A DNA stretch of 64,000 bases from Streptacidiphilus sp. MAP12-33 (GCF_041261265.1 NZ_JBGCCA010000031.1:1-64000); one strand, 5' to 3'. Positions 1-24,580 are shown, counted from the stretch's first letter. Numbers and translations: made by a program. Notes: generated from the letters alone by a model not told the origin.

Positions 1-91
1 TTCAGGCCGTTCAGGCCGTTCAGGCCGTTCAGGCCGTTCAGGCCGTTCAGGCCGTTCAGGCCGTTCAGGCCGTTCAGGCCGTTCAGGCCGT
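1..91. repeat. Perfect tandem repeat (ttcaggccg)x10, truncated by the window edge
   Basis: Direct reading: a 9-bp unit repeated 10 times with no mismatches. It lies immediately 3' of the stop codon (92-94 on minus) of the large AAA+ gene. Confidence 0.9.
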
Positions 92-7517: not shown

Positions 7518-7601
7518 GGCTGTTCCCTTGGATGGACTTCACTGGTGCTGCGAATGAGATGGATGTGCGTTGTGCGTGCGCTGGACGTGCGCTGGCTGTG
7601 A

Positions 7602-8471: not shown

Positions 8472-8698
8472 CCGTCGCGGACCCGCACGCGTCAGGGTGG
8501 CAGCGCGAACGGCACCACCGCAGTGCGTGATCCCGGCAGTCTTAGCGCCCTCTTAGCATCCGGGTTCAGCTCACAGCAGCGGTGCCGTCCACGGGACCAC
8601 GGCCGGATGGCTAACCTTGCGCGATGCCCACCCGACCGCGCCCCTCCGCTTCACGAGCGCACCCACCCTCCGCGTTCGTCTGGCTCGTCCCGATCGGC

Positions 8699-9205
8699 AT
8701 GCTGGCGGGTGCCGTCGCGGTGTTCCTCGGCGTAGGCCCGAACCTCGCCGGCTCACTCCGGCTGACCGGCGCCCCGGGCACCCTCGCCGTGCACTCCTGT
8801 TCCACGGTGGGATCCGGCAAACAGGCGCACACCCGCTGCACGGGCACCTTCACCTCCGACGACGGAACCGTCCAGGACCCCTCCGCCACCATCGACGTGC
8901 CCCTCGCCACCGGCGGCACCGTCCCGGTCCAGCGCGCCGCAGACGGCTCCCTCGTCCAGGTCGGCGTCGTTCCGGCGGCCGGCTGGATCGCCGTCCTCTT
9001 CCTCGGGCTCGCGACCGCGGCCCTGGGCTGCCTCTGCGCGGTCCTCCTGATCCGCCGCCCGGCCTCGCTCGACCACCTCGGCGTCCTCCGCCCCGACGCC
9101 CCGGAGCGCCGCCTGGCCAAGTACGCCGGCCTCCTCTGCTGCGCGTCCGTCGCGGCCGCCCTGCTGAGCGGCCTGATCTCGGTCGCGGGCCGCCTGGTCC
9201 AGTAG
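8699..9205 (+). CDS. Hypothetical membrane protein (two TM segments). An alternative upstream start lies at 8624
   Basis: Six-frame ORF with hydrophobic segments 'MLAGAVAVFLGVG' and 'WIAVLFLGLATAALGCLCAVLLI' and high GC3. Confidence 0.45.
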   Translation: MLAGAVAVFLGVGPNLAGSLRLTGAPGTLAVHSCSTVGSGKQAHTRCTGTFTSDDGTVQDPSATIDVPLATGGTVPVQRAADGSLVQVGVVPAAGWIAVLFLGLATAALGCLCAVLLIRRPASLDHLGVLRPDAPERRLAKYAGLLCCASVAAALLSGLISVAGRLVQ

Positions 9206-9342
9206 CGACACCCTCGCATCCCAAGCCCTGCCAGGCCACCGACCGGCCCCTGACGAACAGTTGCCGTCACCTACAACCGCAAGAGGCCCCGGACCTACGA
9301 CGGTCCGGGGCCTTTGCGTTGCGTTCCGGCTGGTGAGCCGCA

Positions 9343-9386
9343 GAGCCCCCTGTCGGGTTCGAACCGACGACCCCCGCTTTACAAGA
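9343..9386. repeat. attL of AICE-1, a 44-bp partial tRNA-Thr copy (T-arm to anticodon loop)
   Basis: 'gagccccctgtcgggttcgaaccgacgacccccgctttacaaga' is identical to 23142-23185. Confidence 0.85.
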
Positions 9387-9523
9387 CTGCGAGTGAGACT
9401 CACGCCCTGAGCAGCGGATACGTGGACCTGATGGCGTGGCCGCTCAACTCCCCGTCAGTCACCGCTCGAACCCATCGGACACCGCTCGTTCTGGCACGGT
9501 AGTGGCACGCCCGGGAGAACAAG

Positions 9524-9814
9524 CTACGAGTGGTCCAGCACCTGGGGACAGGTGAGGTCAATCCAGATCCATGGTTCGTGGTGCCACGTCCGTATCTCGC
9601 CGACGATCACTGAAATGACGCTCCCCACCGGCGGGAGTTCTTGCGCGAGTCGGCGCACCTCAGGCTCGCTGCCACGTCGGATGACGTCCATGGATGCGCC
9701 CACGGGCTCGAACCCGTGGATCTTCGCGGTGACACCCCAAGGCCAGTGGCCTGTGATCGTTGCTTCGACTTGAGCACCCTGCGCGAGCTCGCTCAGTGGG
9801 CGTTCGTCAGACAC
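9524..9814 (-). CDS. Hypothetical protein (96 aa), AICE-1 cargo
   Basis: Six-frame ORF with no recognisable motif. Confidence 0.35.
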   Translation of the reverse strand: MSDERPLSELAQGAQVEATITGHWPWGVTAKIHGFEPVGASMDVIRRGSEPEVRRLAQELPPVGSVISVIVGEIRTWHHEPWIWIDLTCPQVLDHS

Positions 9815-10058
9815 GACACCTCCTCTTGGCGCTCACTATAGGGAGCGGCTTTACAGACCGCTCCGCGATCCGGCGGGTCATCCACCCTGACCTGCGAGGA
9901 GTCGTCTTGCGCCCTACGTATCGGGGCTTCTGGTCCGTGACTGGTCCGGATCTTGAACGCCGGCGGCACTGGGTCCTGCATCACGCTCGACGAGGGAGCT
10001 GATCTCCGATCGTTGAAGTTAGTAGGCTCGCGTGCCAGTTGAGATCTAGGGGTGGGCC

Positions 10059-11249
10059 ATGAGGATCAGAGACCTGACGAGTGCCACTGCGGTGGAAAGG
10101 GCACTCGCTGAGTACAACGACTTGGGTGGGCAGCGTTTCCGCGACAAGCACAAGTTCGGCCCCTCGACGCAGTACTACCTCAGTCACGCTGACCTGCTGT
10201 ACGACGCCAAGGCGATCGCCGGCGTCGCTTACGGCTACCAGCATCGGACCAGCGGTCCGTTGTCAAACGACCAGTTCGATGGTGGCGAGGCGGCCACAAA
10301 CCCCGTACTGCGCGCCATGGGGTTCACGGTCCTCAACAGCCACACGGAGACCGTAGACGCAGAGCGGGAGTGGCGCCTGGCTGTGTGGCGGAATCTGCTC
10401 GGACGGCGGGACAGCTCCGGGCTGGTCACCGCGGACGCCATTCGCTCAGTAGGTGCATACGGCAACTACCGTGGCATCTGGACAGACAAAGCCCGTACCC
10501 AGAAGATCCATCCCGACGGCGTGACGATCGGACTCAAGCACACCGGCCAACACTACCCCGACGACCTGAACGAGAACGGAGCGCTGTACCACTACCCGGT
10601 CACACGGCAGCCAGGCCGTGACCTCGGTGAAGTCAACGCCACGAAGGCGGCCGCCACGCTGCGGCTTCCCCTGTTTGTGATCACCGAGCATGGCGACCTC
10701 CGAGGCGTACACCTTGCATGGGTAGAGGGCTGGGAGGACGAGAGCAGCCTGTTCCTGGTCAACTTCGGCGAGACCCCGCCCGTACAAGTCCTGGACCACG
10801 ACCGCTCAGAGGAGCAGCCGTTCCAGCTCGAAGGCAACAGACGCCGCCGACGGAACGGGACTGTGGTCACACGACCGGACCAGGCCCGATTCAAGCTCGA
10901 AGTGTTCCAGCGGTACGGTCCACACTGCCCCCTCTCGGGGATCGCGATTCCCCAGATGATCGAGGCAGCCCACCTCCGAGGCGACGCTGACGGCGGTACC
11001 TCCGACGCCCGCAACGGCCTGCCAATGAACGCGGCACTTCACAGGGCCTTTGACGCCCACCTCTTCGCCATCAACCCTGACACCCTGACCGCAGAGGCGC
11101 GCCCTGGAGGACCAAGCCTGGGAGCCATGGGCATCGTGCACCCAAAGCTTGCCCTGGACCGCCAGCCGCACCCAGAGGCCCTTCGGTGGCGCTACAACGA
11201 GTGGCTGCGCTGCACCGGCCGAGAAGCGGAAGTACCAGCCGACGAGTAG
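10059..11249 (+). CDS. HNH-family nuclease with N-terminal putative modified-DNA reader domain(s). Candidate type IV (modification-dependent) restriction enzyme
   Basis: The C-terminus 'CPLSGIAIPQMIEAAHLRGDADGGTSDARNGLPMNAALHRAFDAHLFAINPD' matches the HNH_2 / McrA-like nuclease motif (C..C, AAH, NGL, HxxFD). The upstream domains have no catalytic motif. The region has lower GC than the flanks. Confidence 0.7.
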   Translation: MRIRDLTSATAVERALAEYNDLGGQRFRDKHKFGPSTQYYLSHADLLYDAKAIAGVAYGYQHRTSGPLSNDQFDGGEAATNPVLRAMGFTVLNSHTETVDAEREWRLAVWRNLLGRRDSSGLVTADAIRSVGAYGNYRGIWTDKARTQKIHPDGVTIGLKHTGQHYPDDLNENGALYHYPVTRQPGRDLGEVNATKAAATLRLPLFVITEHGDLRGVHLAWVEGWEDESSLFLVNFGETPPVQVLDHDRSEEQPFQLEGNRRRRRNGTVVTRPDQARFKLEVFQRYGPHCPLSGIAIPQMIEAAHLRGDADGGTSDARNGLPMNAALHRAFDAHLFAINPDTLTAEARPGGPSLGAMGIVHPKLALDRQPHPEALRWRYNEWLRCTGREAEVPADE

Positions 11250-11667
11250 GCAGACTGGTTACGCCAGAAGCCCCGCTCCATTCGGCGCGGGGCTTCTGCG
11301 TTGGTTCGCTCGGCAAGGTTCAAACTGCAACCTTTGATCCGCAGCTCTTGCCGGACGAGTCATTCGTGGACAACCGCGCCTGTGGGGCGGCAGACTCCCC
11401 AGGCCATGCAGCAGCAACGTGAGTTGCTGTCCCTCACTGCTGTACGCGACGACTGCCGTCATACAGCGCAGTCCGTGATCTGAAGTCACTCACGTGCTTC
11501 AGCGAGCGACTCCGATGGCAGCAATCGAGACTCATCCTCTACAGCCGCGATGTAGTCGCCCAGGGTCAAGTCCCCGGCCGCAAGCGAGTAAGCCAGCAAG
11601 CTGACTGGCTGCTCAGCCATGCCATTCCCCATCCTTCGGCGTACTCGTCGAGCAAACGCAACGCACG

Positions 11668-12054
11668 CTAGTGGCTGCTGTAGTTGATCGTCAGAATCGC
11701 CACTACCCGGTGTGCGTCCCCGTCGGCCTCAACGCGGTACTCATCATTGAACTGGTAATCGATGCGGGCCGCACCACTTACCTCGTAGTGAGTTGTCCGC
11801 GACCACCCCGGCCCCTGCGGCTTGCCGGCCTTTCCTCGCAGGATGCAGGTCGATGCAACAGGTGCCGGATTGCCAGGATCGTGGGACACGTGATCCCAGA
11901 ACTGTTGAGCCTGCTGCAACCCAACCCGATCCGCCAACTGCTCATACAAGCGCTTGAACCGCCTGTGAACCAAGACGCGATATTTAGGCTGCTCGTCTGG
12001 CTTTCCACCAGGACGCCTGGCCGGCTCATGCGGGTCGTAGGCGCTGCTACTCAT
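11668..12054 (-). CDS. YoeB/Txe-like (RelE/ParE superfamily) toxin
   Basis: 'RGKAGKPQGPGWSRTTHYEVSGAARIDYQF...HRVVAILTINYSSH' resembles the YoeB 'GKGKPEPLKHNLSGFWSRRI...' core. It overlaps the upstream antitoxin ORF by 8 bp. Confidence 0.55.
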   Translation of the reverse strand: MSSSAYDPHEPARRPGGKPDEQPKYRVLVHRRFKRLYEQLADRVGLQQAQQFWDHVSHDPGNPAPVASTCILRGKAGKPQGPGWSRTTHYEVSGAARIDYQFNDEYRVEADGDAHRVVAILTINYSSH

Positions 12055-12511
12055 CTTCGGGCCGAGGCGCGGTCACGAAGTCTGCGGGGTCGTGTTGGCC
12101 GAGCAGGATACTGCGCCGCAGAGGGTCTTCCAGCTGTCGGGCGGTGGTCCGCCAAGCCTGCAGACAGTCCTCTAGGACGCTGACGTGACCGTCTGCATGA
12201 GCTGCCGTGAGGGCCGCCTGGAGCTCCGCAAGGAACTCCCGAAGATCCTCATCGTCGAAGACTCGAAGCCATGCCAGGTCACCGAGAGCACTGACATCTC
12301 TGCCTGCTCCGCGGCTGATGATTGCCTCCAGGCGCACGGCTGCTTGCGACCAATCCGCCAGGGTCTCTAGCAGGTGCAGGCGACTCTCAGGCAACATGAC
12401 CAGGCTAGTGCCATCCTTGTCGCGGACCCTCGCGAGGCCGCTACGCGCCGCTGTCAGGAGCTCAACTCGCTTGGTAGCTAGATCGCTGGCTTGAAAGATG
12501 GTGTCAGTCAT
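12047..12511 (-). CDS. Phd/YefM-family antitoxin (N-terminal domain) with an extended C-terminus
   Basis: The N-terminus 'MTDTIFQASDLATKRVELLTAARSGLARVRDKDGTSLVMLPESR' is a typical YefM/Phd fold signature. It sits immediately upstream of, and overlaps, the toxin gene. Confidence 0.6.
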   Translation of the reverse strand: MTDTIFQASDLATKRVELLTAARSGLARVRDKDGTSLVMLPESRLHLLETLADWSQAAVRLEAIISRGAGRDVSALGDLAWLRVFDDEDLREFLAELQAALTAAHADGHVSVLEDCLQAWRTTARQLEDPLRRSILLGQHDPADFVTAPRPEDE

Positions 12512-12550
12512 AGCTCCTCCTGTTTGCTAGGATCCTACGTACGATCGTGA

Positions 12551-13876
12551 TTGTCAACGTGGCATCCGGGTGACCCGGCCAAGGTCAGGAGGTGGCGCAA
12601 CTTGAGCGGGCCAAGGCCGTTTGACGCGCGCGAGGCACTGATGTGCGAGACCGACAAGAACCCCGGCACCTCATGGCGCACAGTAAGCCTCGTCACTAGC
12701 CTCAGACACCTCCTCGCCCGCAACCAAGAGGCAGACAACACCTCCCAGGAATCTCGGGCAGATGCCCTCCGCGCGATAGCCAGCGAGCTGACACGCCGCG
12801 GCATCGATGCCGACTCCCTGATTCGCTACGGGCTCTGCATTGAGGTTTTCTCCCCACTTCTCGGTGCCGCGATCCTGAAGAACATAATCCCCAAAAAAGA
12901 CCTGGGGAGGATCCTCGGACTTAGCCCCGAAGACCTGGAAGCTTGGCGCGATGTTCTCGACATTCAAGCGTCGGTCGCGCCAGCGCCAGGTGATGATGAC
13001 TTCGCAGGGTTCGTCCAAGTCACCATCGAGTCGTTTGGGCCGCGAGTGATTACATGGATCCTCTACGCCCCCGTAGATGACTTGATCACCTTGCGCCCGC
13101 CGCAGCCGGCAGAGCTAGAAGAGGCTCTGAATTTTGCCGACCCGTCCGCAGAGCTCATAAAAGAGTATCGCTGGGTTGTCGATCGCTTCTCAGAGACATT
13201 CGTGCGGGATTGGTCGGAGCATTCCCTTCGACAGGAGTACCTGTGGATCCAAGGGCGCGCCCTGCCCCCCTGCCCTCCCGCGCTGATGGGGGATCGGCTG
13301 GTCACTCGCAGCGAACTGGAAGCTGAGATAGCGCGCCGCGCCGTCCTGCCGCCCACCGAGCCGTCGCCGTTGGAGTCAGTCGACTCCGGGGGGAGGCTCG
13401 TCATCGAAATGGAGAACCACGCGCGCCTGCTGCTCTCCGAGGGCCGTTATCGCGAGGCAGCTGCCCTCTTTGAGTTTGCCGAGAAACGGCGCCCCGAGGA
13501 CCCTTCGATTCACAACGACATGGGGTTCTGTCTCATTCCAGTAAACTCTCGCGAGGCCCTCAAGCATCTCAATTCTGCCGCAGCACTCGGATACCATCCC
13601 GCAGCAATCAATACATACAACATCATGTGCTGCCAGTTCGACGGGCGGGACTTTCACTCCCTCGTTGGCACGGCCGGAAAATATTGGGATACCCAGCTGG
13701 AGAACCGGGCCACCCCCGGAACTTTGTGGCGCTGGAGCAGCAGGGACTCATGGCAACTGGTGAATACAAAGGACGCCAGAAAGGCGATCGCCACGCTGGC
13801 TCACCAGGTTTGCACCACCGAAGGCTGGAAGGAGCTCGAACAGCTTTGGTTTGATCGGCTTGAAGAATTGGCGTGA
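12551..13876 (+). CDS. Hypothetical protein with a C-terminal TPR-like repeat, lower-GC cargo of unknown function. The start is uncertain (possible TTG at 12602 with an AGGAGG RBS at 12587-12592, or ATG at 12641)
   Basis: Six-frame ORF of 441 aa containing 'EGRYREAAALFEFAEKRRPEDPSIHNDMGFCLI' (TPR-like). GC is about 55-58% against a backbone above 70%. It is divergent from the TA pair. Confidence 0.55.
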   Translation: MSTWHPGDPAKVRRWRNLSGPRPFDAREALMCETDKNPGTSWRTVSLVTSLRHLLARNQEADNTSQESRADALRAIASELTRRGIDADSLIRYGLCIEVFSPLLGAAILKNIIPKKDLGRILGLSPEDLEAWRDVLDIQASVAPAPGDDDFAGFVQVTIESFGPRVITWILYAPVDDLITLRPPQPAELEEALNFADPSAELIKEYRWVVDRFSETFVRDWSEHSLRQEYLWIQGRALPPCPPALMGDRLVTRSELEAEIARRAVLPPTEPSPLESVDSGGRLVIEMENHARLLLSEGRYREAAALFEFAEKRRPEDPSIHNDMGFCLIPVNSREALKHLNSAAALGYHPAAINTYNIMCCQFDGRDFHSLVGTAGKYWDTQLENRATPGTLWRWSSRDSWQLVNTKDARKAIATLAHQVCTTEGWKELEQLWFDRLEELA

Positions 13877-14406
13877 TTGCTCTACCGGGCCGACCAGTCC
13901 CGGAGCCGTGTTTCTGCGCGTCGGTGCATTCCCACCACTCCCCCCCTGACATCCCGTCCGCCGTCGACCCACACGCACGTGGAGCGGGCTTGCCCCCTGG
14001 GGTCCAGATGGAGCGCGCCACTGTACGAACGATCTGGACCCCAGGGGGCAAGTCTGCTCGGCTCTGCCTGGGTCGATGGCGGTCGGGATGGCAGTCCCCT
14101 CCCCAGCCCCTACGGCCTGCACCCTCGGCACGGCCCGGTCATCCCGGTGCCGGCTGATCCCCTGTCGTCCAGACAGTCAGTCCGACTCTTGCCCCTGCCT
14201 CCGCTTGCGGTCCGCCCCGCCGGGCGGCGCGGGGCGAAGACAGGAGCGCGCCCGAGCGGGGGCGGGCCGCGCCGCGCAAGCGGCGTGGTCCCTTGATTCA
14301 GTAGAGAAAGTCATCACCACTCCCCTCTCCACCTCATCTCACCTCGAACGATTCACGTCAACCACGCTGCCGCGCTTGGCGCGCTCGCCCCGTACTGCTC
14401 TTCTCG

Positions 14407-14829
14407 TCAGGCCTCGTCGTCCGCAGAGCGGACCCAAGCCAACTGCGCCTCGCTTAGCGGCGGATCGAACCCTTCGGGGAACATCAGCATCCGTTGGTCC
14501 GGCCAGATGTTCACAGGCCCGTGCCCTTCGCAGTGGTGGGCAATGAGGTGGGGCCCTTCCCCGCATTGCTCGTGTATGTACGGACGTTCGTGGGTCTGAC
14601 AGATGGACCAGTAGAGCGAACACTCGTGGTCATCGGCATCCGGCGGGTCGGCGAACCCAGGGTCGCGGACAATGACCGTCACCCGCTCCTGCTTGTTGAA
14701 GCGCGGGATGGGTCCAGGGTCGCACCACAGCAAACGAGGGGGCAGCACCTCAGCTCGCCTGCTCCTGATCGAGGAGCACTCGCCCGTCGTGAGTTCGGAC
14801 CAGGGGCGCATAGTCATCGCGCAGCGCAT
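14407..14829 (-). CDS. Hypothetical Cys/His-rich protein, overlapping and downstream of the NUDIX gene
   Basis: Six-frame ORF. It is co-directional with the nudix gene and overlaps it by 80 bp, so its start is probably internal. Confidence 0.35.
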   Translation of the reverse strand: MRCAMTMRPWSELTTGECSSIRSRRAEVLPPRLLWCDPGPIPRFNKQERVTVIVRDPGFADPPDADDHECSLYWSICQTHERPYIHEQCGEGPHLIAHHCEGHGPVNIWPDQRMLMFPEGFDPPLSEAQLAWVRSADDEA

Positions 14830-15196
14830 CGTGGATGCGGACGGCGTAGACCTGGCCCATGCTGGCGGTGACTTCCTCCGGGGTCAGCCACTCAACCGCG
14901 GCTGTCTCATCCGAGAGCTGTTCGTGCCCGCTTTCAGGGTGGCAGCGGAAGACCAGAGCGACGACGCCCCTCGCGAGGTTCTTGTAGACGCCGGTCAGAC
15001 GCTCCACGCCGACCTTGATGCCGGTCTCCTCGTAAACCTCTCGGCGAACGCCGTCCTCGATCGTCTCCGTGAGTTCCAGCACCCCGCCCGGCGGCTCCCA
15101 GGTGGCGTTATCGGCGCGCTGAATGGCAAGGATGCGGCCATCCTCACGGACGACGACTCCGGCGACGGACACGGAGTGCTGCGGCGTGGTACTCAT
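14750..15196 (-). CDS. NUDIX hydrolase (MutT-like), a typical AICE gene
   Basis: The Nudix box 'GGVLELTETIEDGVRREVYEETGI' is present. Confidence 0.8.
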   Translation of the reverse strand: MSTTPQHSVSVAGVVVREDGRILAIQRADNATWEPPGGVLELTETIEDGVRREVYEETGIKVGVERLTGVYKNLARGVVALVFRCHPESGHEQLSDETAAVEWLTPEEVTASMGQVYAVRIHDALRDDYAPLVRTHDGRVLLDQEQAS

Positions 15197-15197
15197 G

Positions 15198-15211
15198 TAC
15201 AGGAGACTAGG
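15198..15211. promoter_or_regulatory. Putative KorSA operator 'ctcaTGTACAggag' in the nudix/kor divergent promoter region
   Basis: A near-palindrome centred on TGTACA. Its exact reverse complement occurs at 16097-16110. Confidence 0.5.
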
Positions 15212-15225
15212 GGACGGTAAGGACT

Positions 15226-16008
15226 ATGGGGAACGTAGACGCGGCCTCGGCTTCGGGCGCACCGAAGTACTTGCAGATCGCAGAGGACCTGGCCGCGCAG
15301 ATCCGTTCAGGCGGGCTGGCTCCGGGGGACCCGGTGCCGAGTGAAGCTGAGCTGATGGCCCGGTACAACTCTGCGTCGGGCACCGTGCGAAAGGCCGTGG
15401 CTGAGCTGCGGACTCAGCAGCTCGTGGAAACTCACCACGGGAAGGGCTCGTTCGTGCGCCGGCGTCCGCCGGTTCAGCGGAAGTCCTCGGATCGCTTCCG
15501 GCGTTCACACCGACAGGCGGGCAAGGCTGCCTACATCGCGGAGGTCGAACAGTCGGGCGGAGTCCCCTCGGTGGCGGTCCTCCATGTCGGCGCCGCGCCG
15601 GCTCCAGAGGGCATCGCCGCGCGGCTCGGGGTGGAGCCTGGCACGAAGGTGCTCGCACGTCGCCGGCGCTACTTCTTGGATGGCACCCCGACCGAAGAGG
15701 CCACGTCCTACCTGCCGTGGGATGTGGTCAAGGACATCCCAGAGATGTTCCAGGAGAACCCCGGCGGCGGTGGAATCTATGCCCGACTTGAAGAACACGG
15801 CTACCGGCTCGCCGACTTCACCGAGACTGTGCGGGCACGGCTGGCCACCAAGGCTGAGGTGTCGGCGCTTGCCCTGAGCCCTGGCGCGCCGGTGCTGCAT
15901 CTGATCCGTGATGCCCGCACGGTGGACGGGCGGGTGGTCGAGGTCTGCGACACGCTCATGTCCGCTGACCAGTTCGTTCTTGATTATCGCTTCGCCGCTG
16001 GCGACTGA
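15226..16008 (+). CDS. GntR-family transcriptional regulator, KorSA-like (kil-override) repressor
   Basis: It has an N-terminal winged HTH 'APGDPVPSEAELMARYNSASGTVRKAVAELRTQQLVETHHGKGSFV' and a UTRA-like C-terminus. Palindromic operators flank the gene. Confidence 0.8.
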   Translation: MGNVDAASASGAPKYLQIAEDLAAQIRSGGLAPGDPVPSEAELMARYNSASGTVRKAVAELRTQQLVETHHGKGSFVRRRPPVQRKSSDRFRRSHRQAGKAAYIAEVEQSGGVPSVAVLHVGAAPAPEGIAARLGVEPGTKVLARRRRYFLDGTPTEEATSYLPWDVVKDIPEMFQENPGGGGIYARLEEHGYRLADFTETVRARLATKAEVSALALSPGAPVLHLIRDARTVDGRVVEVCDTLMSADQFVLDYRFAAGD

Positions 16009-16062
16009 CGGAGCCTCAACCTCCGTATCCCGTCCCGAGATTCTTTCCGGGGCGGGTTTACT

Positions 16063-16110
16063 TATGTACAGGAGTAGGGCACTCTCTAATCATCGCTCCT
16101 GTACATGAGT
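16063..16110. promoter_or_regulatory. Inverted pair of the same operator motif (cttatgtacaggag ... ctcctgtacatgag) upstream of the pra-position gene and traSA
   Basis: Two copies in inverted orientation are separated by 20 bp, immediately upstream of the 16145 ATG. Confidence 0.5.
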
Positions 16111-16144
16111 GCAGGAGAAAGCCTCATCTAGAGGAGTCGGCTCA

Positions 16145-16489
16145 ATGCCTGCCTTCAAGATCGACCTTTCGACCGCAGTCGTCTTCGTCGCCGTCGGACC
16201 GGCGCCCAAGCTGAAGAACAAGAAGACCGGTGAGCTCGCCACCGACGCGGTGACCGGCGCCGTGATGCACACCGTGGGTCTGCTGGTCTCGGACGAGGGC
16301 GACGGGAACCTGCTGACCGTGAGCGTCCCGGAGTCGGGCCTGCCGCCCGAGGGCATCGCCGTCGGCACCATGGTCGCGGTGACCGGCCTCAAGGCCCGCG
16401 ACTGGGAGAACGAGTTCAACGGCGAGAAGCGGCACGGGATCGCGTTCCGCGCCATGGCCGTCACCCCGTTCGCGCCGGCGAAGGGCTGA
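16145..16489 (+). CDS. Hypothetical protein in the pra position (possible OB-fold / ssDNA-binding-like)
   Basis: The ORF begins 'MPAFKIDLSTAVVFVAV'. The tail 'WENEFNGEKRHGIAFRAMAVTP' is reminiscent of SSB OB-folds. It lies between kor and tra, as pra does in pSAM2. Confidence 0.4.
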   Translation: MPAFKIDLSTAVVFVAVGPAPKLKNKKTGELATDAVTGAVMHTVGLLVSDEGDGNLLTVSVPESGLPPEGIAVGTMVAVTGLKARDWENEFNGEKRHGIAFRAMAVTPFAPAKG

Positions 16490-16494
16490 TCGCG

Positions 16495-17880
16495 GTGAAC
16501 GACCTCCTCGCTCTCATCGAGACCGGCGCCCCGTTAGCCACCGTCGCGGGCGGTGCCCTGTACACCCGCAGCCACGCCCCGCGCGCGTACTGGTCCGCGG
16601 TCGGCCTGCCGGCCACGCTGGTCCGCATGCGCCGGGACTGGGCGGAGACCATGGACGCCTGCGGGCTCGCCACCGAGCCGCCGCTGTGGCGGATCCTGGC
16701 TACCCAGCGCGGTGACAACGCCGTGCGGCGCCCGGTCCCGCCAAAGGTCCGCATGGTACAGCCCTCGACCATGGGCGTCCGGGTCCGCATCCGGCTCGCC
16801 AAGGGGATGACCACGGAGACCGTGTCCAAGGCGGCTGAGGCTCTGCGGCACGCCTGGCAGGTCCACGCGGTCTACGTGACCGAGGTCCGCCCCGGCGTCG
16901 TCGACCTCCGCATCATGGGCTTCGACGTGCTGGCGAACGTCGTGGTCCCGTCCCGGATCACCGCGAAGAACACCGGCCCCGTTCGGGTTCCGGTCGCCCT
17001 GGCCTCCGACGGCCGGCCGTACGTCCGCGACTACCGCGCGGTTCCGCACGGCCTGACCCTTGGGGCGAACCAGTCGGGCAAGTCCATGTTCGCCCGCAAC
17101 CTGGTCCACGGCCTGGCCTCTCAGCCGGTCGCCCTGTGCGGGATCGACTGCAAGAAGGGCGTCGAACAAGCCCCCTTCGGCCCGCGGCTGTCGGCGCTTG
17201 CGATTGACCCCGACCTTGCCCTTGATCTGCTGCGGGTCCTGGTCAACGTCGAGATGGCCCGCCGCTACGACCTGATCCGCGACCACCTCGGCATCCCCGG
17301 CACAGTCGGCGACGGCGAGATAGCCGCCGACGTGTGGGGCCTGCCCGAGCCTCTGCGCCCCGTGCCGCTGGTGCTGATCGTGGACGAGATCGCCGAACTG
17401 CTGCTGTCGACGAAGAAGAACGACCCCCGCCGAGACGAGACCATCACGCTCCTGGTCCGCTTCGCCCAGCTCGCCCGCGCCGCCGGCATGTACCTGGAAG
17501 TCATGGGCCAGCGCTTCGGTGCCGACCTCGGCCCCGGCGCCACCCTGCTGCGCTCCCAACTCACCAACCGCGTCGTCCACCGCGTTAACGACACCGAATC
17601 CGCCCGCATGGGCCTCGGCGACGTCTCCGATGAGGCGATGCACGCGGCCACCGCGCTCAGCCCCTACCTGCCCGGCTGCGCGATCGTCGGCGACACCTCC
17701 GGGCAGTGGCAGCGCATCCGCACCCCGTACCGCTCCCTGTCGGAGACCGCCAGGCACTGCGCCGCGCACGCGCACCTCGTGCCGGACCTGCCCGCGCTGA
17801 ACCCGTTCCGCCCCGTCCCGCCGGCCGACGCTGTGCCCGAGGACGCGCCGGTGTACATCCCGGCCCCCGCCGCCTCGTAG
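16495..17880 (+). CDS. FtsK/SpoIIIE-family dsDNA translocase, TraSA-like conjugal transfer protein
   Basis: Walker A 'LGANQSGKSMFARN' and Walker B 'LVLIVDEIAELL' are present, in a typical AICE position. Confidence 0.8.
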   Translation: MNDLLALIETGAPLATVAGGALYTRSHAPRAYWSAVGLPATLVRMRRDWAETMDACGLATEPPLWRILATQRGDNAVRRPVPPKVRMVQPSTMGVRVRIRLAKGMTTETVSKAAEALRHAWQVHAVYVTEVRPGVVDLRIMGFDVLANVVVPSRITAKNTGPVRVPVALASDGRPYVRDYRAVPHGLTLGANQSGKSMFARNLVHGLASQPVALCGIDCKKGVEQAPFGPRLSALAIDPDLALDLLRVLVNVEMARRYDLIRDHLGIPGTVGDGEIAADVWGLPEPLRPVPLVLIVDEIAELLLSTKKNDPRRDETITLLVRFAQLARAAGMYLEVMGQRFGADLGPGATLLRSQLTNRVVHRVNDTESARMGLGDVSDEAMHAATALSPYLPGCAIVGDTSGQWQRIRTPYRSLSETARHCAAHAHLVPDLPALNPFRPVPPADAVPEDAPVYIPAPAAS

Positions 17881-17965
17881 CGGTCGAGAACGCCCCTGGT
17901 CGGCGCCCCTGCGCGCCAAGTCCCTACCCGAGCCATGCCCGAAACCACTTCGAAAGGACCCTCCC

Positions 17966-18259
17966 GTGACCGTCCACCTGGGCTTCTACGCCGCCGCCGA
18001 CACCACGGTCAACCTGCACGACTACGGCACCGAGCGGACCCCGATCCTCTCCCTCGGCAACATCGCCGAGCACCTGACCATCAGCGCGCTCGACAGCATC
18101 CCGCTGACCGACCACCTGACTTTCGCCCGGCACCTCGCCGCCGCCGCGGCCGACTACCTCGCCGCGCTGGAGATGTACGCCGCCCAGTCCGCGCCGATCA
18201 AGCCCCGGCGCCGCAACCGCCGTCGCCGTCCGCGCGCCGCCGCGAAGACAACGGCCTGA
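17966..18259 (+). CDS. Spd-like small hypothetical protein
   Basis: ORF in the spread-gene region with an Arg-rich C-terminus. Confidence 0.4.
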   Translation: MTVHLGFYAAADTTVNLHDYGTERTPILSLGNIAEHLTISALDSIPLTDHLTFARHLAAAAADYLAALEMYAAQSAPIKPRRRNRRRRPRAAAKTTA

Positions 18260-18261
18260 CT

Positions 18262-18432
18262 GTGGCGACCCGACGAAAGCCCGCCGCCAAAGCACCACCT
18301 GTGTGCCCCTCCTGCGCCGGTACCGGACAGGTCGCCGTCACCGTCCGGGTCGGCCGCAAGCGCCGCAACGCCGGCCAGCAGGAAGGCATCTGCCTCGGCT
18401 GCTTCGGCTCCGGCACCGCCGACCCCGAGTAG
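18262..18432 (+). CDS. Small CxxCxGxG zinc-ribbon protein (56 aa)
   Basis: GTG start directly after the preceding stop. The sequence is 'CPSCAGTGQVAV...CLGCFGSGTA'. Confidence 0.35.
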   Translation: MATRRKPAAKAPPVCPSCAGTGQVAVTVRVGRKRRNAGQQEGICLGCFGSGTADPE

Positions 18433-18508
18433 TCCGATCGCCGGAGTCGGGCGGCCGGCCAAACGCCCCGCTCGCCTCCGGTCCCAACTGTGAACGGAGA
18501 AAGCTCCG

Positions 18509-19189
18509 ATGAACCGCCGTCTCCTACCCCGCGTGGATGCGGTGCTGGTGCAGGCCGTGATCGCCGCCGCGCTGTCCTTCGCCCACCTCCACGACGTGGC
18601 GATGGCCGCCGGGCAGACCGGCTGGAAGGCATGGGCCTACCCCATCTCGGTGGATCTGCTCTTGGTCGCTGCCTGGCGCCGACTGCGGCAGAACCGCTCC
18701 GCCCGACTGGCCTGGGCCTGGTTCACCATCGCCCTCGCTGCATCCCTCGGTGCCAACGTCGCCACCGCCGGATTCCTCGACATGCACCACGCCCCGGCCT
18801 GGCTGCGGATGCTCGTCGCCGGCTGGCCCGCCGCCGCGTTCCTCGGCGGCACCCTCCTCGCCCACGATCGCGCCCCGCACACCGAACCCCCGACCCCGCC
18901 CGTCGTCCCGGCACCGGCGCCCGTTCTCGACGTCGAGCGCGAAGACCCCCCGGTCTACCTCGACGAACCGGCCCCGGAACTGCCCGAGCCCGAGCCGGCA
19001 CCGGCGCTCCCGCCGGCTCCAGCGATGACCGTCCCGGCCGCGCTGCTCAACCACGCCCGCTCGATCGCTGCCGACCACCAGACCCGGACCGGTGCCCCGA
19101 TCGACCCGGACGCGCTGCGCACCCGGCTCGGTGTCCCGCCCCAGCTCGCTACCGCGATCCTCGCCCAGCTCGAAGGAGTCCCGGCATGA
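18509..19189 (+). CDS. SpdB-like membrane protein (DUF2637-like N-terminus)
   Basis: The N-terminus 'LVQAVIAAALSFAHLHDVAMAAGQTGWKAWAYPISVDLLLVAAW' resembles the 42924 gene of AICE-2. It has a Pro-rich linker. Confidence 0.6.
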   Translation: MNRRLLPRVDAVLVQAVIAAALSFAHLHDVAMAAGQTGWKAWAYPISVDLLLVAAWRRLRQNRSARLAWAWFTIALAASLGANVATAGFLDMHHAPAWLRMLVAGWPAAAFLGGTLLAHDRAPHTEPPTPPVVPAPAPVLDVEREDPPVYLDEPAPELPEPEPAPALPPAPAMTVPAALLNHARSIAADHQTRTGAPIDPDALRTRLGVPPQLATAILAQLEGVPA

Positions 19190-19377
19190 CCATCCAGCTC
19201 CCCCTGGTCGTCGTCCTCGGCCTGATCGTCTGGCTGCTCGTCAAGGTCATGCGCCTGCGGCTGTGGATCGTCGCCGTGGTCCTGCTCTTCGGCTTCTACC
19301 TCGCTCACACCATGTTTGCCCCGGTGATCAACGACACCACCAAGACCGGCGTCGACGTCGTCAACCAGCACCGCTGA
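19186..19377 (+). CDS. Small membrane protein (63 aa), translationally coupled (ATGA overlap)
   Basis: 'MTIQLPLVVVLGLIVWLLVKVMRLRLWIVAVVLLFGFYLAH'. Confidence 0.45.
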   Translation: MTIQLPLVVVLGLIVWLLVKVMRLRLWIVAVVLLFGFYLAHTMFAPVINDTTKTGVDVVNQHR

Positions 19378-19398
19378 CCTGGAAGGAAACGATCCGCC

Positions 19399-19743
19399 AT
19401 GGGAATCCGCCCGACCTTCGCCCCCGGCTCGAACCAGCCCTACGTCATCACGCAAACCCCGCCCCCGGCCCCGCTCCCGGTACCGGTCCAGCAGCCGACG
19501 GCTCCGGCCCCGGCCAACTACCAGCAGCAGCCGGCCACGTACTACGCCCCGCCCGCCCCGGTCATCGTCCGAGCGGCCCGACCCTCGGTCGCCCCGTACG
19601 TCGCCGGCGGCATCGGCGCCGTCGTCGCCGTGATCGTCGCCGGTGCCATCGCGATCGGCATCCTCCTCGCCCTCGCCGTCGCCTCGGTCGCCGTCAAGGG
19701 CCTGGTCAACAGCCTCAAGGAGCACGGCCCCACCCGCGACTAG
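19399..19743 (+). CDS. Pro-rich membrane protein (Spd-like)
   Basis: It has a Pro/Gln-rich N-terminus and a C-terminal TM 'GGIGAVVAVIVAGAIAIGILLALAVASVAV'. Confidence 0.5.
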   Translation: MGIRPTFAPGSNQPYVITQTPPPAPLPVPVQQPTAPAPANYQQQPATYYAPPAPVIVRAARPSVAPYVAGGIGAVVAVIVAGAIAIGILLALAVASVAVKGLVNSLKEHGPTRD

Positions 19744-19837
19744 CTACACCTCGGGGCGACCGATCCCGGCCAAGGAATCACGGTCGCCCCGAGCCCTCCC
19801 AGCCCCGATCAACTCACAGGACAGGAGTCCCACCATC

Positions 19838-20032
19838 ATGCCCGCGAACACCAACTCCGTGCGCATCTGCTCCAACTGCGACGGCTTCCCCGTCGCCCAC
19901 GTCTCCATCGGCTCCCGCCAGCCGGACGGCACGCTGCCCACGCTGCCTGCGGTCTGCCTCCACTGCTCCGGCACCGGCCACGTCCCCGCCACCACGGCCA
20001 AGACCCCGGCCCTCACCCCGGCCGGTCGGTGA
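19838..20032 (+). CDS. Small CxxC...CxxCxGxG zinc-ribbon protein
   Basis: 'CSNCDGFPV...CLHCSGTGHV', a paralogue of the 18262 gene. Confidence 0.4.
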   Translation: MPANTNSVRICSNCDGFPVAHVSIGSRQPDGTLPTLPAVCLHCSGTGHVPATTAKTPALTPAGR

Positions 20033-20036
20033 CGTC

Positions 20037-20207
20037 ATGGGCCTCCTCGACTGGCGCGACTCCAAGCACTGGTCCAACACCCCCGACGACTGCGTGATCT
20101 GCGACAAGCCCACCAACCTGCGCTCCGACCGCGGGAAGCCCGTCCACAAGGTCTGCGCGGAGGACTGGAACGAGCAGCACGCCCGCCCCGAGGGTGAGCG
20201 CTCCTGA
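20037..20207 (+). CDS. Small Cys-containing protein (56 aa)
   Basis: 'CVICDKP...HKVCAEDW'. Its stop overlaps the rep start (TGATG). Confidence 0.35.
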   Translation: MGLLDWRDSKHWSNTPDDCVICDKPTNLRSDRGKPVHKVCAEDWNEQHARPEGERS

Positions 20208-21673
20208 TGGCGTTGACGCTGAACCCGTTCACGGACCCCACACTCGCCGGTGGGGCCCGTGGCCGGCACTTCGACGACGTGACGGACGACCTCGCGCGCC
20301 TGTCCGCCCGCGGTGACCTGCCCCGACTGGTTGAGCAGATCCGCCGCACTGGTGGCTGCGCGAACCCGATCAACCTGTGGGGCTCCAAGACCATCCGCCA
20401 CCTGCCCACCGGCCTCGCGCTCAGCGAGTACAGCACCGCCGACGAACCGGGCGGACGCCTCAAGGTCGCCTGCGGCAACCGCCGGGCCACCCGGTGCCCC
20501 ACCTGCTCGGCCACCTACGCCGCAGACACCTACCACCTCATCCGCGCCGGCCTTGTCGGCGACCACACCAAGGACGTCCCCGCCACGGTCCGAGACTGCC
20601 CGCGGGTCTTCGCCACCCTCACGGCCCCATCGTTCGGCCCCGTCCACAACCGCCCCGACACCGGACGCTGCCGCTGCGGCCGACAGCACGCCAAGACCGA
20701 CCCCATGTTGGGCTCGCCGCTCGACCCCGAGCGATACGACTACGCGCACGCGGTCCTGTGGAACAACTGGGCTTCCGAGCTGTGGCGCCGCTTCACCATC
20801 TACCTGCGCCGCGAGCTCGCGAAGGCGTCCGGCCTCACCCGCCGCGAGTTCGACGACACGGTCAAGCTCGCCTTCGGAAAGGTCGCCGAGTACCAACGCC
20901 GCGGCGCCGTGCACTTCCACGCCGTCATCCGCCTCGACGGCGCCGGCCCGCCCGGAGCCACCCCGCCCGCCTGGGCCACGGTCTCACTGCTCCACCGCGC
21001 GATCCGGTCCGCCGCCCGGTCGGTCACAGTTCCGCTCGATGCCGCCGACCCCCACCCCGCCCGAGTCCTGCGCTGGGGCGATCAAATCGACGTCCGCCCC
21101 ATCCGGGCCTTCGGCGACGGCTCCCAGATCACCGAACAGGCCGTGGCCTCCTACGTCGCCAAGTACGCCACGAAGGCCGCCGAGGTCACCGACAGCGTCG
21201 ATCGCCGACTCCACTCCCTCGGCGCCCTGGCCGACTACGACTTGCCCGACCACACCCGGCGTCTGATCGAGACCTGCTGGGAACTCAACGACGCCTACCC
21301 GGAACGGCTGCTCGCGCACTGGTCCCACATGCTCGGCTTCCGCGGGCACTTCTCGTCCAAGTCCCCCCGCTACTCCACCACCCTCGGCGCCTTACGCCAG
21401 GCACGCGCCGACTACCGCGCCCAACAGACCCACGAGGAACTGCGCGAACGGCTCCTCGCCGCCGGCCTGCCCGACCTGGACGACATGGAACACGACGGCG
21501 AAACCCTCGTCCTCGCCCACTGGATCTACGCCGGCCAAGGCCACACCCCCGGCGAATCCCTGCTCGCCGCCACCATCGCCGAACAGATCGAACACAACCG
21601 CACCGCCGCCAGAGAGGAGCGCCAATCGCTGCTCCCGAGCCGAGAGGAGGGACAGGCATGGACCGCCTGCTGA
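20207..21673 (+). CDS. RepSA-like replication initiator protein (rolling-circle type, pSAM2 family)
   Basis: The N-terminus 'CANPINLWGSKTIRHLPTGLALSEY...CGNRRATRCPTCSATYAADTYHLIRAGLVG' is typical of AICE RepSA. Confidence 0.7.
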   Translation: MALTLNPFTDPTLAGGARGRHFDDVTDDLARLSARGDLPRLVEQIRRTGGCANPINLWGSKTIRHLPTGLALSEYSTADEPGGRLKVACGNRRATRCPTCSATYAADTYHLIRAGLVGDHTKDVPATVRDCPRVFATLTAPSFGPVHNRPDTGRCRCGRQHAKTDPMLGSPLDPERYDYAHAVLWNNWASELWRRFTIYLRRELAKASGLTRREFDDTVKLAFGKVAEYQRRGAVHFHAVIRLDGAGPPGATPPAWATVSLLHRAIRSAARSVTVPLDAADPHPARVLRWGDQIDVRPIRAFGDGSQITEQAVASYVAKYATKAAEVTDSVDRRLHSLGALADYDLPDHTRRLIETCWELNDAYPERLLAHWSHMLGFRGHFSSKSPRYSTTLGALRQARADYRAQQTHEELRERLLAAGLPDLDDMEHDGETLVLAHWIYAGQGHTPGESLLAATIAEQIEHNRTAAREERQSLLPSREEGQAWTAC

Positions 21674-21879
21674 CAGTGCGTGAGGTGGCCGAACGACTCG
21701 GCACCTGGGAAACGAGCAAGGAGCGCTTTCCCCGCCGGCTGATCGAGGAACGCCGCATCGAGTTCGTCCACGTGGGCCGCCACGTCCGGATCAAGGAAAG
21801 CGTCCTGGCTGCCTACGTCGAGGCCAACACCGTGCGCCCCGTGGTTCGTCGGCGTCGGTTCGGGGCGGTGGCTGCCTGA
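21658..21879 (+). CDS. xis: Excisionase (Xis), helix-turn-helix
   Basis: 'MDRLLTVREVAERLGTWETSKERFPRRLIEERRIEFVHVGRHVRIKESVL'. It overlaps the rep end and is coupled to the int start. Confidence 0.75.
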   Translation: MDRLLTVREVAERLGTWETSKERFPRRLIEERRIEFVHVGRHVRIKESVLAAYVEANTVRPVVRRRRFGAVAA

Positions 21880-23045
21880 TGGCCAACAGCAAAGGCGCAC
21901 GCCGCCGGTTCGGCTCGGTCCGGCAGCTCCCGTCTGGCCGGTGGCAGATCCGCTACCCCGATCCCCTCACGGGGCTCCTGCGGACTGGTGAGCAGACCTA
22001 CGCGACCAAGACCGATGCTGAGATCGCGCTGACACTGATCGAGGCCGACATCACTCGGAATCAGTGGGTTGACCCGGACTCCGGAAAGACCAACTTCGCC
22101 GTCTTCGCGGACGCCTGGTTCCGGGACCGCAAGCTGGAGGAGAGGACGCGGGAGAGGTACGAGGGTGTCATCCGTCTGCACATCCGGCCGCAGCTCGGTG
22201 GGTTGACGCTCTCCGAGATCACTCCCGCACGTGTGCGCTCCTGGCGGACGGTGCTCCTTGCTGAGGGCGTTGGTGAGCCGACCGTGGTCAAGGCATATCA
22301 GCTTCTTCGCGCCATCATGAACACCGCTGTGGATGACGAGTTGATCCAGCGCAATCCGTGTCGGATCAAGGGGGCTGACCGCTACGACGTGCCCGAGCGT
22401 CCGACCCTGACGATCCAGGAGGTGTACGCGGTGGCGGGGGCGATCCAACCGCAGTGGCGCGCGCTGATCCTGCTGGCGGCCTTCACCACGCTGCGCTTCG
22501 GGGAGTTCGCCGCGCTCCGCCGGCGGGATGTGGATCTGGAAGCGCGCGTCTTGTGGGTCCGACGCAATCAGGCTGAGCTGAGCAGCGGAAAGCTGATCGA
22601 GAAGGCACCCAAGAGTCGCGCCGGCTTCCGCCCGGTCGCGTTCCCCGTCGACATCGTCCCGGACCTTGAGCACCACCTCACGATGCACGCGAGCAAGAAG
22701 GACGACGGGCCATTCTTCGTCGGTCCGCGGGGTGGCCGGCTGCGGCGGAGCAACTTCGGAGACGACTGGGCTGATGCCTGTAAGGCCGCCAAGGTCACCG
22801 TGGACGCTCACTTCCACGATCTCCGCCACACCGGGAACACCCTAGCGTCGCAGAACGGGGCGAGCACCCGAGAGCTCATGATCCGCATGGGTCACAGCAC
22901 CCCGCGCGCGGCGTTGATCTACCAGCACATGACCAGTGACCGCGATCGTGTGATCGCCGACCGGATGGGCGAAGCGGTCCGCAAGGCGCTCGGCAAGGAG
23001 GACCCTCCGGAGCCTTCTGGCACGCCAGTGGCACGGCCCGAGTAG
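21879..23045 (+). CDS. int: Tyrosine recombinase / integrase (Int) of AICE-1
   Basis: It has an N-terminal arm-binding-like 'RFGSVRQLPSGRWQIRYPDPLTG', a catalytic region 'HDLRHTGNTLASQNGASTRELMIRMGHSTPRAALIYQH' (R...HxxR...Y), and sits adjacent to the tRNA att site. Confidence 0.9.
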   Translation: MANSKGARRRFGSVRQLPSGRWQIRYPDPLTGLLRTGEQTYATKTDAEIALTLIEADITRNQWVDPDSGKTNFAVFADAWFRDRKLEERTRERYEGVIRLHIRPQLGGLTLSEITPARVRSWRTVLLAEGVGEPTVVKAYQLLRAIMNTAVDDELIQRNPCRIKGADRYDVPERPTLTIQEVYAVAGAIQPQWRALILLAAFTTLRFGEFAALRRRDVDLEARVLWVRRNQAELSSGKLIEKAPKSRAGFRPVAFPVDIVPDLEHHLTMHASKKDDGPFFVGPRGGRLRRSNFGDDWADACKAAKVTVDAHFHDLRHTGNTLASQNGASTRELMIRMGHSTPRAALIYQHMTSDRDRVIADRMGEAVRKALGKEDPPEPSGTPVARPE

Positions 23046-23139
23046 CGGCCTCCACCGGTCGAACACCGACGAAGGGCCAGTCCGAGAGGCTTACCGCCTC
23101 CGAGCTGGCCCTTCTCACGTTCTCGCGATCTCTCGCGGA

Positions 23140-23216
23140 TGGAGCCCCCTGTCGGGTTCGAACCGACGACCCCCGCTTTACAAGAGCGGTGCTCTGGCCA
23201 GCTGAGCTAAGGAGGC
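23140..23216 (-). tRNA. tRNA-Thr (anticodon UGU), 77 nt with an encoded CCA
   Basis: The manual fold 'GCCTCCT TA GCTC AGCTGGCCA GAGC A CCGCT CTTGTAA AGCGG GGGTC GTCGG TTCGAAC CCGAC AGGGGGC T CCA' has all stems paired. Confidence 0.85.
23142..23185. repeat. attR of AICE-1, a 44-bp core inside the intact tRNA-Thr gene
   Basis: Identical to 9343-9386. Confidence 0.85.
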
Positions 23217-23479
23217 GCGGTTGGCAGTGTACCGGGCGGGCGGAGTGGATGGCGGGTGCATTTTGTGCCGAGGGAGGGCTGACAAGCACACCATCGGACA
23301 GGTAACGTCACCCGGAGTTCACTTCGCTGGTGGACTAGACCTCATCGTGGACCGTGCCGCTCCGGCGGGTTGGTACGGGGTGCGGGAGGGCGACAGAAGC
23401 GACAAGTTCATACGGACACACCCCCCTTTACATCGGATCGTCCGGCACGTTCCTGCCGGTGAAGGAGAGCAGAAGCACT

Positions 23480-24580
<1,101 letters not shown>

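Follow-up and report, generated by a model that had tools for sequence, protein, structure and literature searches.

Why does the 3' part of a tRNA-Thr(UGU) gene recur, unchanged, nearly 14 kb away from the gene itself, and what has come to lie between the two copies? The question arises in a 64,000-nucleotide stretch of DNA from Streptacidiphilus sp. MAP12-33 (GCF_041261265.1 NZ_JBGCCA010000031.1:1-64000; this whole stretch is called the window here), whose host belongs to a genus other than Streptomyces. A first-pass annotation of this DNA had proposed a pSAM2-type actinomycete integrative and conjugative element (AICE) bounded by a tRNA-derived repeat. Our analysis leads us to the same answer with high confidence: positions 9343-23185 very probably constitute an integrated pSAM2 (RepSA/TraSA)-type AICE with the anatomy and mechanism set out in the following paragraphs and, as far as its sequence can be read, the element is probably complete and still mobile.

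The attachment site provides the most direct evidence. ARAGORN identified tRNA-Thr(UGU) (23140-23216, minus strand) as the sole tRNA gene of the window, in agreement with the Rfam tRNA model (64.5 bits) and with what had been annotated. The 44-mer GAGCCCCCTGTCGGGTTCGAACCGACGACCCCCGCTTTACAAGA occurs exactly twice in the window, at 9343-9386 and 23142-23185, the two copies being identical at 44/44 positions, so the perfect duplication described at the left end is real. No third copy was present in the window at up to 3 mismatches (100 shuffles gave 0 matches), and blastn-short with the whole tRNA as query returned no degenerate extra att copy in the 64 kb. In the orientation of the tRNA, the repeat begins in the anticodon loop (TCTTGTAA...), continues through the T arm and the acceptor stem and stops at C74, 2 nt short of the gene-encoded CCA end; the coordinates first assigned to it were therefore correct, but it does not comprise the literal last 44 nt of the tRNA. 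Identity segments of this extent, anticodon loop through 3' end, are typical of AICE att sites. The interval between and including the repeats spans 13.8 kb (9343-23185) and its circular form would measure 13,799 bp.

The two ends of the interval differ in the way that integration into a tRNA gene predicts. The attL core (23142-23185) lies within the functional tRNA, the integration target, while the attR core (9343-9386) holds the displaced tRNA-Thr 3' part as the 44-bp identity segment and is followed, on the tRNA strand, by native sequence without CCA. The integrase gene adjoins the intact tRNA, 96 bp from the att core, and the displaced 3' fragment stands at the opposite end. On the element side, the left arm (9387-9523; P' arm in the reconstructed attP) has two direct repeats of CACCGCTCG, spaced 20 bp, that may be arm-type sites, and the right arm (23046-23141, the P arm) contains a terminator-like hairpin after int and supplies the CA of the tRNA's CCA. 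In the attB that we reconstructed, the tRNA ends in ...GGGGGCTC followed by TGC, without CCA, as do most homologues at element-free sites. Moreover, the tRNA 3' half (AGCGGGGG...GAACCC) is identical in the window and in two loci described below, L082 and L001, and differs at 3 positions from that of other Streptomyces tRNA-Thr genes (AGCGAAGG...GAATCC). This pattern of identity and the CCA-less attB are as expected if a crossover close to the anticodon loop left the tRNA with a 3' half provided by the element.

The gene content of the interval was established by filtering open reading frames (ORFs) by codon-position GC content, because GC is high, followed by profile searches (Pfam, NCBIfam). 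These searches found every gene predicted between the copies: int, xis, a RepSA-like initiator, an FtsK-like TraSA, a GntR KorSA-like repressor and a nudix gene. At the tRNA end of the backbone, on the plus strand, repSA (20207-21673) matches PF20199, 'Replication initiator protein, pSAM2', over its full length (E 1.5e-146) and carries the HUH motif HFH and the tyrosine motif YVAKYATK. It is followed by the excisionase gene xis (21676-21879; HTH_17 in Pfam) and by int (21879-23045), which encodes a 388-aa tyrosine integrase (Phage_integrase, E 1.2e-16, with SAM-like N domains) in whose sequence the R, HxxR and Y residues can be recognised by eye. The three genes form an operon with a 2-nt gap between repSA and xis and a TGATG overlap between xis and int, their translational coupling being intact.

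At the other side of the backbone, a Pif-like NUDIX hydrolase gene (14750-15196, minus strand; E 3.6e-19) is divergent from korSA; it is called Pif-like by family and position and is kept at the same place in related elements. The korSA-like gene (15226-16008, plus strand) encodes a GntR/HutC-type repressor with a UTRA domain (Pfam). Downstream of it lies a Pra-like regulator gene of the SCO3933 family (16109-16489, plus strand; NCBIfam NF051478, E 1.1e-37), which had not been recognised before; SCO3933 has been reported as a Pra homologue, and in pSAM2 pra is located downstream of korSA (PMC8584621). The next gene encodes a TraSA-like DNA translocase of the FtsK/SpoIIIE family (16495-17880, plus strand; PF01580, E 4.6e-29) with both a Walker A (GANQSGKS) and a Walker B (LVLIVDE) motif.

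Between traSA and repSA, profile searches and ORF analysis delimited a run of seven small plus-strand genes (17966-20207). The first (17966-18259) precedes one for a CxxCxGxG zinc ribbon (18262-18432) and one for a DUF2637 membrane protein (18509-19189), of which the Micromonospora element pMR2 also has one; two hydrophobic products (19186-19377 and 19399-19743), a zinc-ribbon paralogue of the 18262-18432 product (19838-20032) and a last small gene (20037-20207) complete the series. No Spd-specific profile matched these small ORFs in spread-gene position, whether DUF2637, hydrophobic or zinc-ribbon; their position and hydrophobicity suggest a Spd-like role. The run had been described as ATGA-coupled: the small genes are there, but a single ATGA overlap exists (19186-19189), with TGATG at the repSA (20207) and int (21879) starts and gaps of 2-95 nt elsewhere. 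A minus-strand ORF at 19744-20016 was dropped in favour of the plus-strand 19838-20032, which is a paralogue of 18262-18432 and matches a called gene in L082. The zinc-ribbon pair also gives weak DnaJ central-domain matches, and its likeness at the DNA level constitutes repeat family D3.

All core genes are full length, equal in length to their homologues, and keep their catalytic motifs. Their order, korSA-pra-traSA...repSA-xis-int-att, is the published layout of pSAM2 and AICEs (PMC2440964, PMC8584621, PMC3218068), in which repSA-xis-int lies by att and is accompanied by KorSA, Pra, the nudix protein Pif, TraSA and small hydrophobic Spd proteins (PMC2440964, PMC3218068); the canonical architecture first attributed to the element thus holds, with profile-verified modules in pSAM2 order. 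Three of the features that define an AICE are found here: site-specific integration at a tRNA 3' end with identical att segments and an intact tRNA, a single predicted double-stranded DNA translocase of the FtsK/SpoIIIE type, with no type IV secretion system gene among the element ORFs, and a putative replication module of its own (RepSA). Likewise, two of the features that set the pSAM2 type apart are present, namely a RepSA with HUH and tyrosine motifs encoded in a repSA-xis-int operon and a KorSA of the GntR/HutC type with pra downstream. RepSA as a tblastn query did not retrieve the Rep of pMR2, which is consistent with a SAM2-side RepSA, and megablast of the whole element against a plasmid collection found no close relative, only ~73% identity over repSA and a match to the hairpin discussed below.

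If these genes act as their pSAM2 counterparts do, the history and life cycle of the element can be outlined. The tyrosine integrase would have recombined the chromosomal tRNA-Thr(UGU) gene with an attP identical to its 3' part through a crossover in the anticodon-loop region, so that the 3' half of the tRNA would now be supplied by the element and the native half left at the far end. Quiescence would be maintained by the KorSA-like repressor together with the Pif-like nudix protein; upon derepression, the Pra-like activator would switch on repSA-xis-int. The excised element would then replicate by the rolling-circle mode and the FtsK-like TraSA would pump double-stranded DNA into recipient hyphae, where the small membrane and zinc-ribbon proteins may aid spread before reintegration. 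This activity and its regulation, like the roles given here to cargo and hairpin, are what we infer from the anatomy.

To the right of the tRNA follow the msiK leader RNA, an msiK-type ABC ATPase gene and a nucleotidyl transferase gene, and this flank is syntenic in Streptomyces and Kitasatospora, the pairing of tRNA-Thr(UGU) with msiK being kept as far as Arthrobacter and Microbacterium. The leader RNA itself, at 23415-23473 (Rfam RF01747, 54.7 bits), is located upstream of the ABC ATPase gene (23480-24580), beside the integration site. On the left side, tblastx of the upstream regions of relatives against the window gave only noise left of the tRNA. The left flank at 7602-9205 is strain-specific, and its ORF at 7602-8471 (minus strand) has direct repeats spaced 18-42 nt (8128-8283).

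We surveyed 80 msiK loci, and the comparison of occupied and empty sites is one between species. In Kitasatospora sp. NPDC058048 (L082) this tRNA-Thr/msiK site is occupied by a related AICE, and beyond L082 no such integrase was found in the 80 loci. Among the 18 Streptomyces and Kitasatospora msiK loci that keep the adjoining tRNA-Thr(UGU), 17 are without such an integrase and the other, L001 (Streptomyces exfoliatus NRRL B-2924), has only a remnant of one (7459-8021; 71% identity over 92 aa) by a tRNA-Thr(UGU) identical to that of the window, the relic of a family member that has decayed at this site. The presence/absence polymorphism anticipated at this tRNA-Thr is thus borne out between species. 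In the same comparison nothing indicated that the repeat is other than the recombination core, and no relative carried the same 14 kb at this tRNA without a flanking duplication. Anatomy, family assignments, att structure and occupied versus empty sites are in this sense observations.

The integrase places the element in a large family. Besides the protein of Streptacidiphilus sp. MAP12-33, to which it is 100% identical, the next best match reaches 77%, and 3988 members were retrieved at E <= 1e-30, mainly from Kitasatospora and Streptomyces. A 77%-identical integrase resides in tRNA-Arg(CCU) of Streptomyces sp. HU2014 (L081, CP097123.1, 6047-11307), where a 43-bp repeat bounds a 5.2-kb tra-less derivative (GntR, HNH, RepSA, Xis, Int). 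The tRNA-Arg(CCU) and tRNA-Thr(UGU) targets have an identical anticodon stem-loop save for the anticodon, which fits core recognition at that arm, to judge from the target sequences.

The left end of the element is occupied by cargo. It had been described as about 5 kb of lower-GC DNA, and the low GC is evident (61-65% over 9400-14200, versus 70-73% in the tra-rep region and 72-80% in the host flanks), but the insert itself is smaller, ~4.1 kb (about 9815-13930). It lies between a small backbone gene (9524-9814, minus strand; 96 aa, no Pfam family) and a conserved hairpin at the left edge of the AICE backbone. In the metagenome locus L105, a 61%-identical homologue of the 9524-9814 product is encoded ~25 bp from the hairpin, and 9815-13930 is therefore an insertion into that spacer. 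A 4.1-kb lower-GC block would thus have entered between the small backbone gene and the hairpin, adding a restriction enzyme, a DUF6247 module and a TPR protein. The nature of this cargo, including the ScoMcrA-like type IV enzyme, is new relative to the first-pass annotation, as are the Pra homologue and the hairpin.

The best characterised cargo gene (10059-11249, plus strand) encodes a 396-aa protein that matches Pfam HNH_2 (E 4.6e-10) and the PADLOC mREase_IV and HNH models. Precomputed Pfam domains are PF26345 ScoMcrA_N and HNH_2, and residues 11-93 (83 residues) align to ScoMcrA 5zmm. An AlphaFold (AF2) model built from 34 homologues reached a pLDDT of 89.4, and its best PDB matches in Foldseek were TagI (SRA-HNH; E 1.5e-7), ScoMcrA, the SRA domains of SUVH5/UHRF1 and VcaM4I. 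The model thus points to a modified-base reader (SRA/PUA fold) fused to an HNH nuclease, and no match to a sulfur-binding domain was found in the 396-aa protein. On the combined evidence of HNH_2, PADLOC, ScoMcrA_N and AlphaFold/Foldseek, we read this product as a putative modification-dependent restriction enzyme of type IV, composed of a ScoMcrA_N head, an SRA-like reader and HNH_2 and lacking a sulfur-binding domain, which probably cuts incoming methylated or hydroxymethylated DNA. Restriction cargo of this kind and in this position has a direct precedent, because the AICE SLP1 carries ScoMcrA near attR (PMC3009677). More generally, restriction-modification and toxin-antitoxin cargo have been reported for AICEs, as has an AICE at tRNA-Thr (PMC9513070).

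Homologues of the enzyme with 85-94% identity occur in other genera. In L088 the homologue stands alone in a chromosomal kdp context, and in Streptomyces sp. NPDC048710 (L089, 8317-11191) an 88%-identical ScoMcrA_N-SRA-HNH gene ends a Prim-Pol/SSB-type AICE-like element, ~100 bp past an HTH_17 (Xis-like) gene and an adjoining 461-aa ORF without Pfam match. The same restriction gene appears associated with unrelated AICE backbones and, since it stands alone in L088 and in another AICE in L089, it moves independently of the backbone. A 94%-identical HNH protein (P0123) on the Kitasatospora contig of L082 was set aside: it is not within the L082 AICE but 170 kb off, in a kdp context. The remaining cargo consists of a 128-aa protein gene (11668-12054, minus strand), which overlaps by 8 nt its upstream neighbour, a gene for a DUF6247 protein (12047-12511, minus strand; 154 aa, Pfam), and of a gene for a 441-aa protein with weak TPR matches in profile searches (12551-13876, plus strand). 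The first two may form a two-gene module of a possible toxin (128 aa) and a possible antitoxin-like partner (DUF6247). PADLOC matches were confined to the HNH enzyme and the nudix hydrolase, with none for the TPR, DUF6247 and 128-aa proteins, for which PDB sequence searches were uninformative.

The same observations have to be weighed against other accounts of the locus. It could be a true AICE by descent that is already immobilised and decaying, now a permanent part of the chromosome kept solely on account of its cargo. AICEs commonly decay and their cargo is commonly pseudogenised (PMC9513070), remnants of this family exist (the integrase fragment of L001, the tra-less 5.2-kb L081 and, as described below, hairpins with an integrase C-terminal fragment in L092, L105 and L137), and the mobility of the present element is a matter that we infer. 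However, all its backbone ORFs are full length with catalytic motifs, its att cores have not diverged at any of the 44 positions and the repSA-xis-int coupling is intact, and we consider decay unlikely, although worth bearing in mind. The sharp GC drop in the left 4-5 kb and the HNH gene found alone in another genome (L088) would in turn suit an accretion of two elements at one att site, an AICE and an independent low-GC genomic islet, and tandem accretion of AICEs at tRNA sites is documented (PMC2440964, PMC9513070). This is argued against because the block sits within the backbone spacer, with the backbone gene 9524-9814, whose homologue abuts the hairpin in L105, on its left, and because no third att copy exists, even degenerate; the block also has no second integrase, and such an accretion is in our view very improbable. 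Finally, a tyrosine integrase with Xis at a tRNA 3' end is a phage pattern too (PMC2440964), but a prophage or phage satellite would be a hardly credible reading of an interval with no capsid, portal, terminase, tail or lysis genes, which contains RepSA, an FtsK-like translocase, KorSA, Pra and nudix instead and which, at 13.8 kb, falls short of the size of an actinophage.

Several points also weigh against an integrated pSAM2-type AICE as we describe it. The empty attB is only reconstructed, because the left flank (1-9342) shares no synteny with the other genera; the 193-aa membrane protein encoded there (8624-9205) is an orphan, its homologue search having found itself alone and a scan of genome contigs having revealed no relatives. 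Exact-protein look-ups of msiK, RepSA and Int for sister strains returned no record. Excision, replication and transfer would take place by analogy with the pSAM2 paradigm, and the case for Spd function of the small genes consists of position and hydrophobicity. The nudix gene, for its part, is divergent from korSA.

The integrated AICE has a further component. At the left edge of its backbone, a strand-specific long hairpin of ~150 nt (13946-14094, plus strand) lies within a conserved block (13931-14165), with inner arms at 13982-14009 and 14032-14059 and the conserved loop GGAGCGCGCCACTGTACGAACG. This block is the only non-repSA part of the element matching plasmid records, among them pMR2 from Micromonospora rosaria and the remnant of an AICE that adjoins a RepSA pseudogene. 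Folded as single-stranded DNA, the plus strand has a free energy of -79.3 kcal/mol (z = -9.2), versus z = -5.3 for the minus strand. In an alignment of ten copies (plasmid or AICE), 97.3% of the cells of 61 pairs are paired, as opposed to 30-40% in slid controls; 25 of the 61 pairs show compensatory changes, a number reached by 0/500 shuffles, and both loop and flanks show conservation. G-U/G-T pairs are numerous and confined to the strand in rep sense; since the opposite strand would have A-C mismatches in their place, the rep-sense strand is taken as the functional one. Rfam assigned the hairpin to no family, with only meaningless sub-threshold microRNA-precursor matches, and a literature search did not find the sequence.

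A wider survey with a 23-nt motif from the 3' flank as query matched 2 viral and 55 metagenome loci, and copies of the hairpin are now known from the window, L083-L087 and L090-L149. Recognisable AICE genes are found at 18 of the 57 viral and metagenome loci and at the plasmid remnant L085, always downstream and in the same orientation. In the fullest examples (e.g. L095, L103), the plus-strand hairpin is followed after 1.1-1.9 kb by nudix on the minus strand, gntR, an SCO3933-like gene, ftsK, DUF2637, repSA and int. About 20 hairpin loci for which 2.5 kb or more of downstream DNA was available show no recognisable AICE genes, some of them being remnants with hairpin, integrase C-terminal fragment and tRNA. 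In L092 (7001-7466, plasmid), L105 (297-1215) and L137 (966-1194), only an integrase C-terminal fragment is left, 80-300 bp past the hairpin, followed in L105 by a tRNA-like 3' fragment (read by eye); nudix through the integrase N-terminus appears to be deleted in all three. Comparison of the hairpin-to-nudix region across metagenome AICEs was uninformative for the window. As a separate observation, a partly truncated hairpin in L112 (5614-6000) follows an intact tRNA-Tyr(GUA) at a distance of ~150 nt, with no recognisable AICE genes in the next 8 kb.

We propose, tentatively and with doubts that outweigh our confidence, that RepSA-type AICEs share this previously undescribed strand-specific hairpin, that it could be the single-strand (lagging-strand) origin, so far missing, for rolling-circle replication of the pSAM2 type, and that the short adjoining spacer could be a preferred entry point for cargo. 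A single-strand origin is our preferred hypothesis for its function, the alternatives being a structured RNA or a terminator-like element; an AICE review describes no single-strand origin for pSAM2-type elements. If the hypothesis is true, the hairpin would complete the replication picture of these elements and offer a sequence marker for AICE backbones and remnants. It is the most interesting aspect of the locus and could matter more than the AICE itself, which adds little as an AICE because such elements are abundant in Streptomycetaceae and its integrase family is counted in thousands; tRNA-Thr integration, variable cargo and restriction-enzyme cargo are all already documented. The element is nevertheless a clean, apparently intact example from the little-studied genus Streptacidiphilus, a possible source of an int/attP pair for tRNA-Thr(UGU) and an illustration of the defence genes carried by AICEs.

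How does the element compare with known systems? It resembles pSAM2, the 10.9-kb AICE of Streptomyces ambofaciens, in its RepSA initiator and repSA-xis-int operon by att, in a tyrosine integrase that acts on a tRNA 3' part, in an FtsK-like TraSA, in a GntR KorSA followed by Pra, in a nudix Pif-like protein and in small hydrophobic transfer/spread genes, a likeness of protein families and gene order. It differs in its target, tRNA-Thr(UGU) rather than tRNA-Pro, in its host genus, Streptacidiphilus, and in being 2.9 kb larger because of its cargo. The AICE of Kitasatospora sp. NPDC058048 (L082) shares the identical 44-mer in the tRNA, the site and the order nudix (minus strand), gntR, SCO3933-like, ftsK, DUF2637, repSA, xis, int, with protein identities of 76% for Int, 73% for Xis, 68% for RepSA, 59% for TraSA and 78% each for KorSA and nudix; its cargo is NERD and GGDEF, versus HNH, DUF6247 and TPR here, and its left end is beyond the compared DNA.

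With pMR2, the 11.2-kb AICE of Micromonospora rosaria at tRNA-Phe, the element has in common a 43%-identical Int, DUF2637, an FtsK-like Tra and a GntR/UTRA regulator, together with the hairpin, which there too lies across att from int and is oriented alike with respect to rep, whereas the RepSA of pMR2 is of the MR2 subfamily and no cargo lies between att and the hairpin. SLP1 of Streptomyces coelicolor is likewise a tRNA-gene AICE with a ScoMcrA_N-SRA-HNH type IV enzyme (ScoMcrA, Sco4631) near attR (PMC3009677), but it has another replication/transfer backbone and targets tRNA-Tyr; ScoMcrA itself has 561 aa and an extra sulfur-binding domain, in contrast to the enzyme of 396 aa in which no such domain was seen. 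The modification-dependent SRA/PUA-HNH enzymes TagI and VcaM4I are the best structural matches to the modelled enzyme in reader and HNH, with only 13-17% sequence identity, and it is the ScoMcrA-type N-terminal head that the cargo enzyme of Streptacidiphilus adds to their plan.

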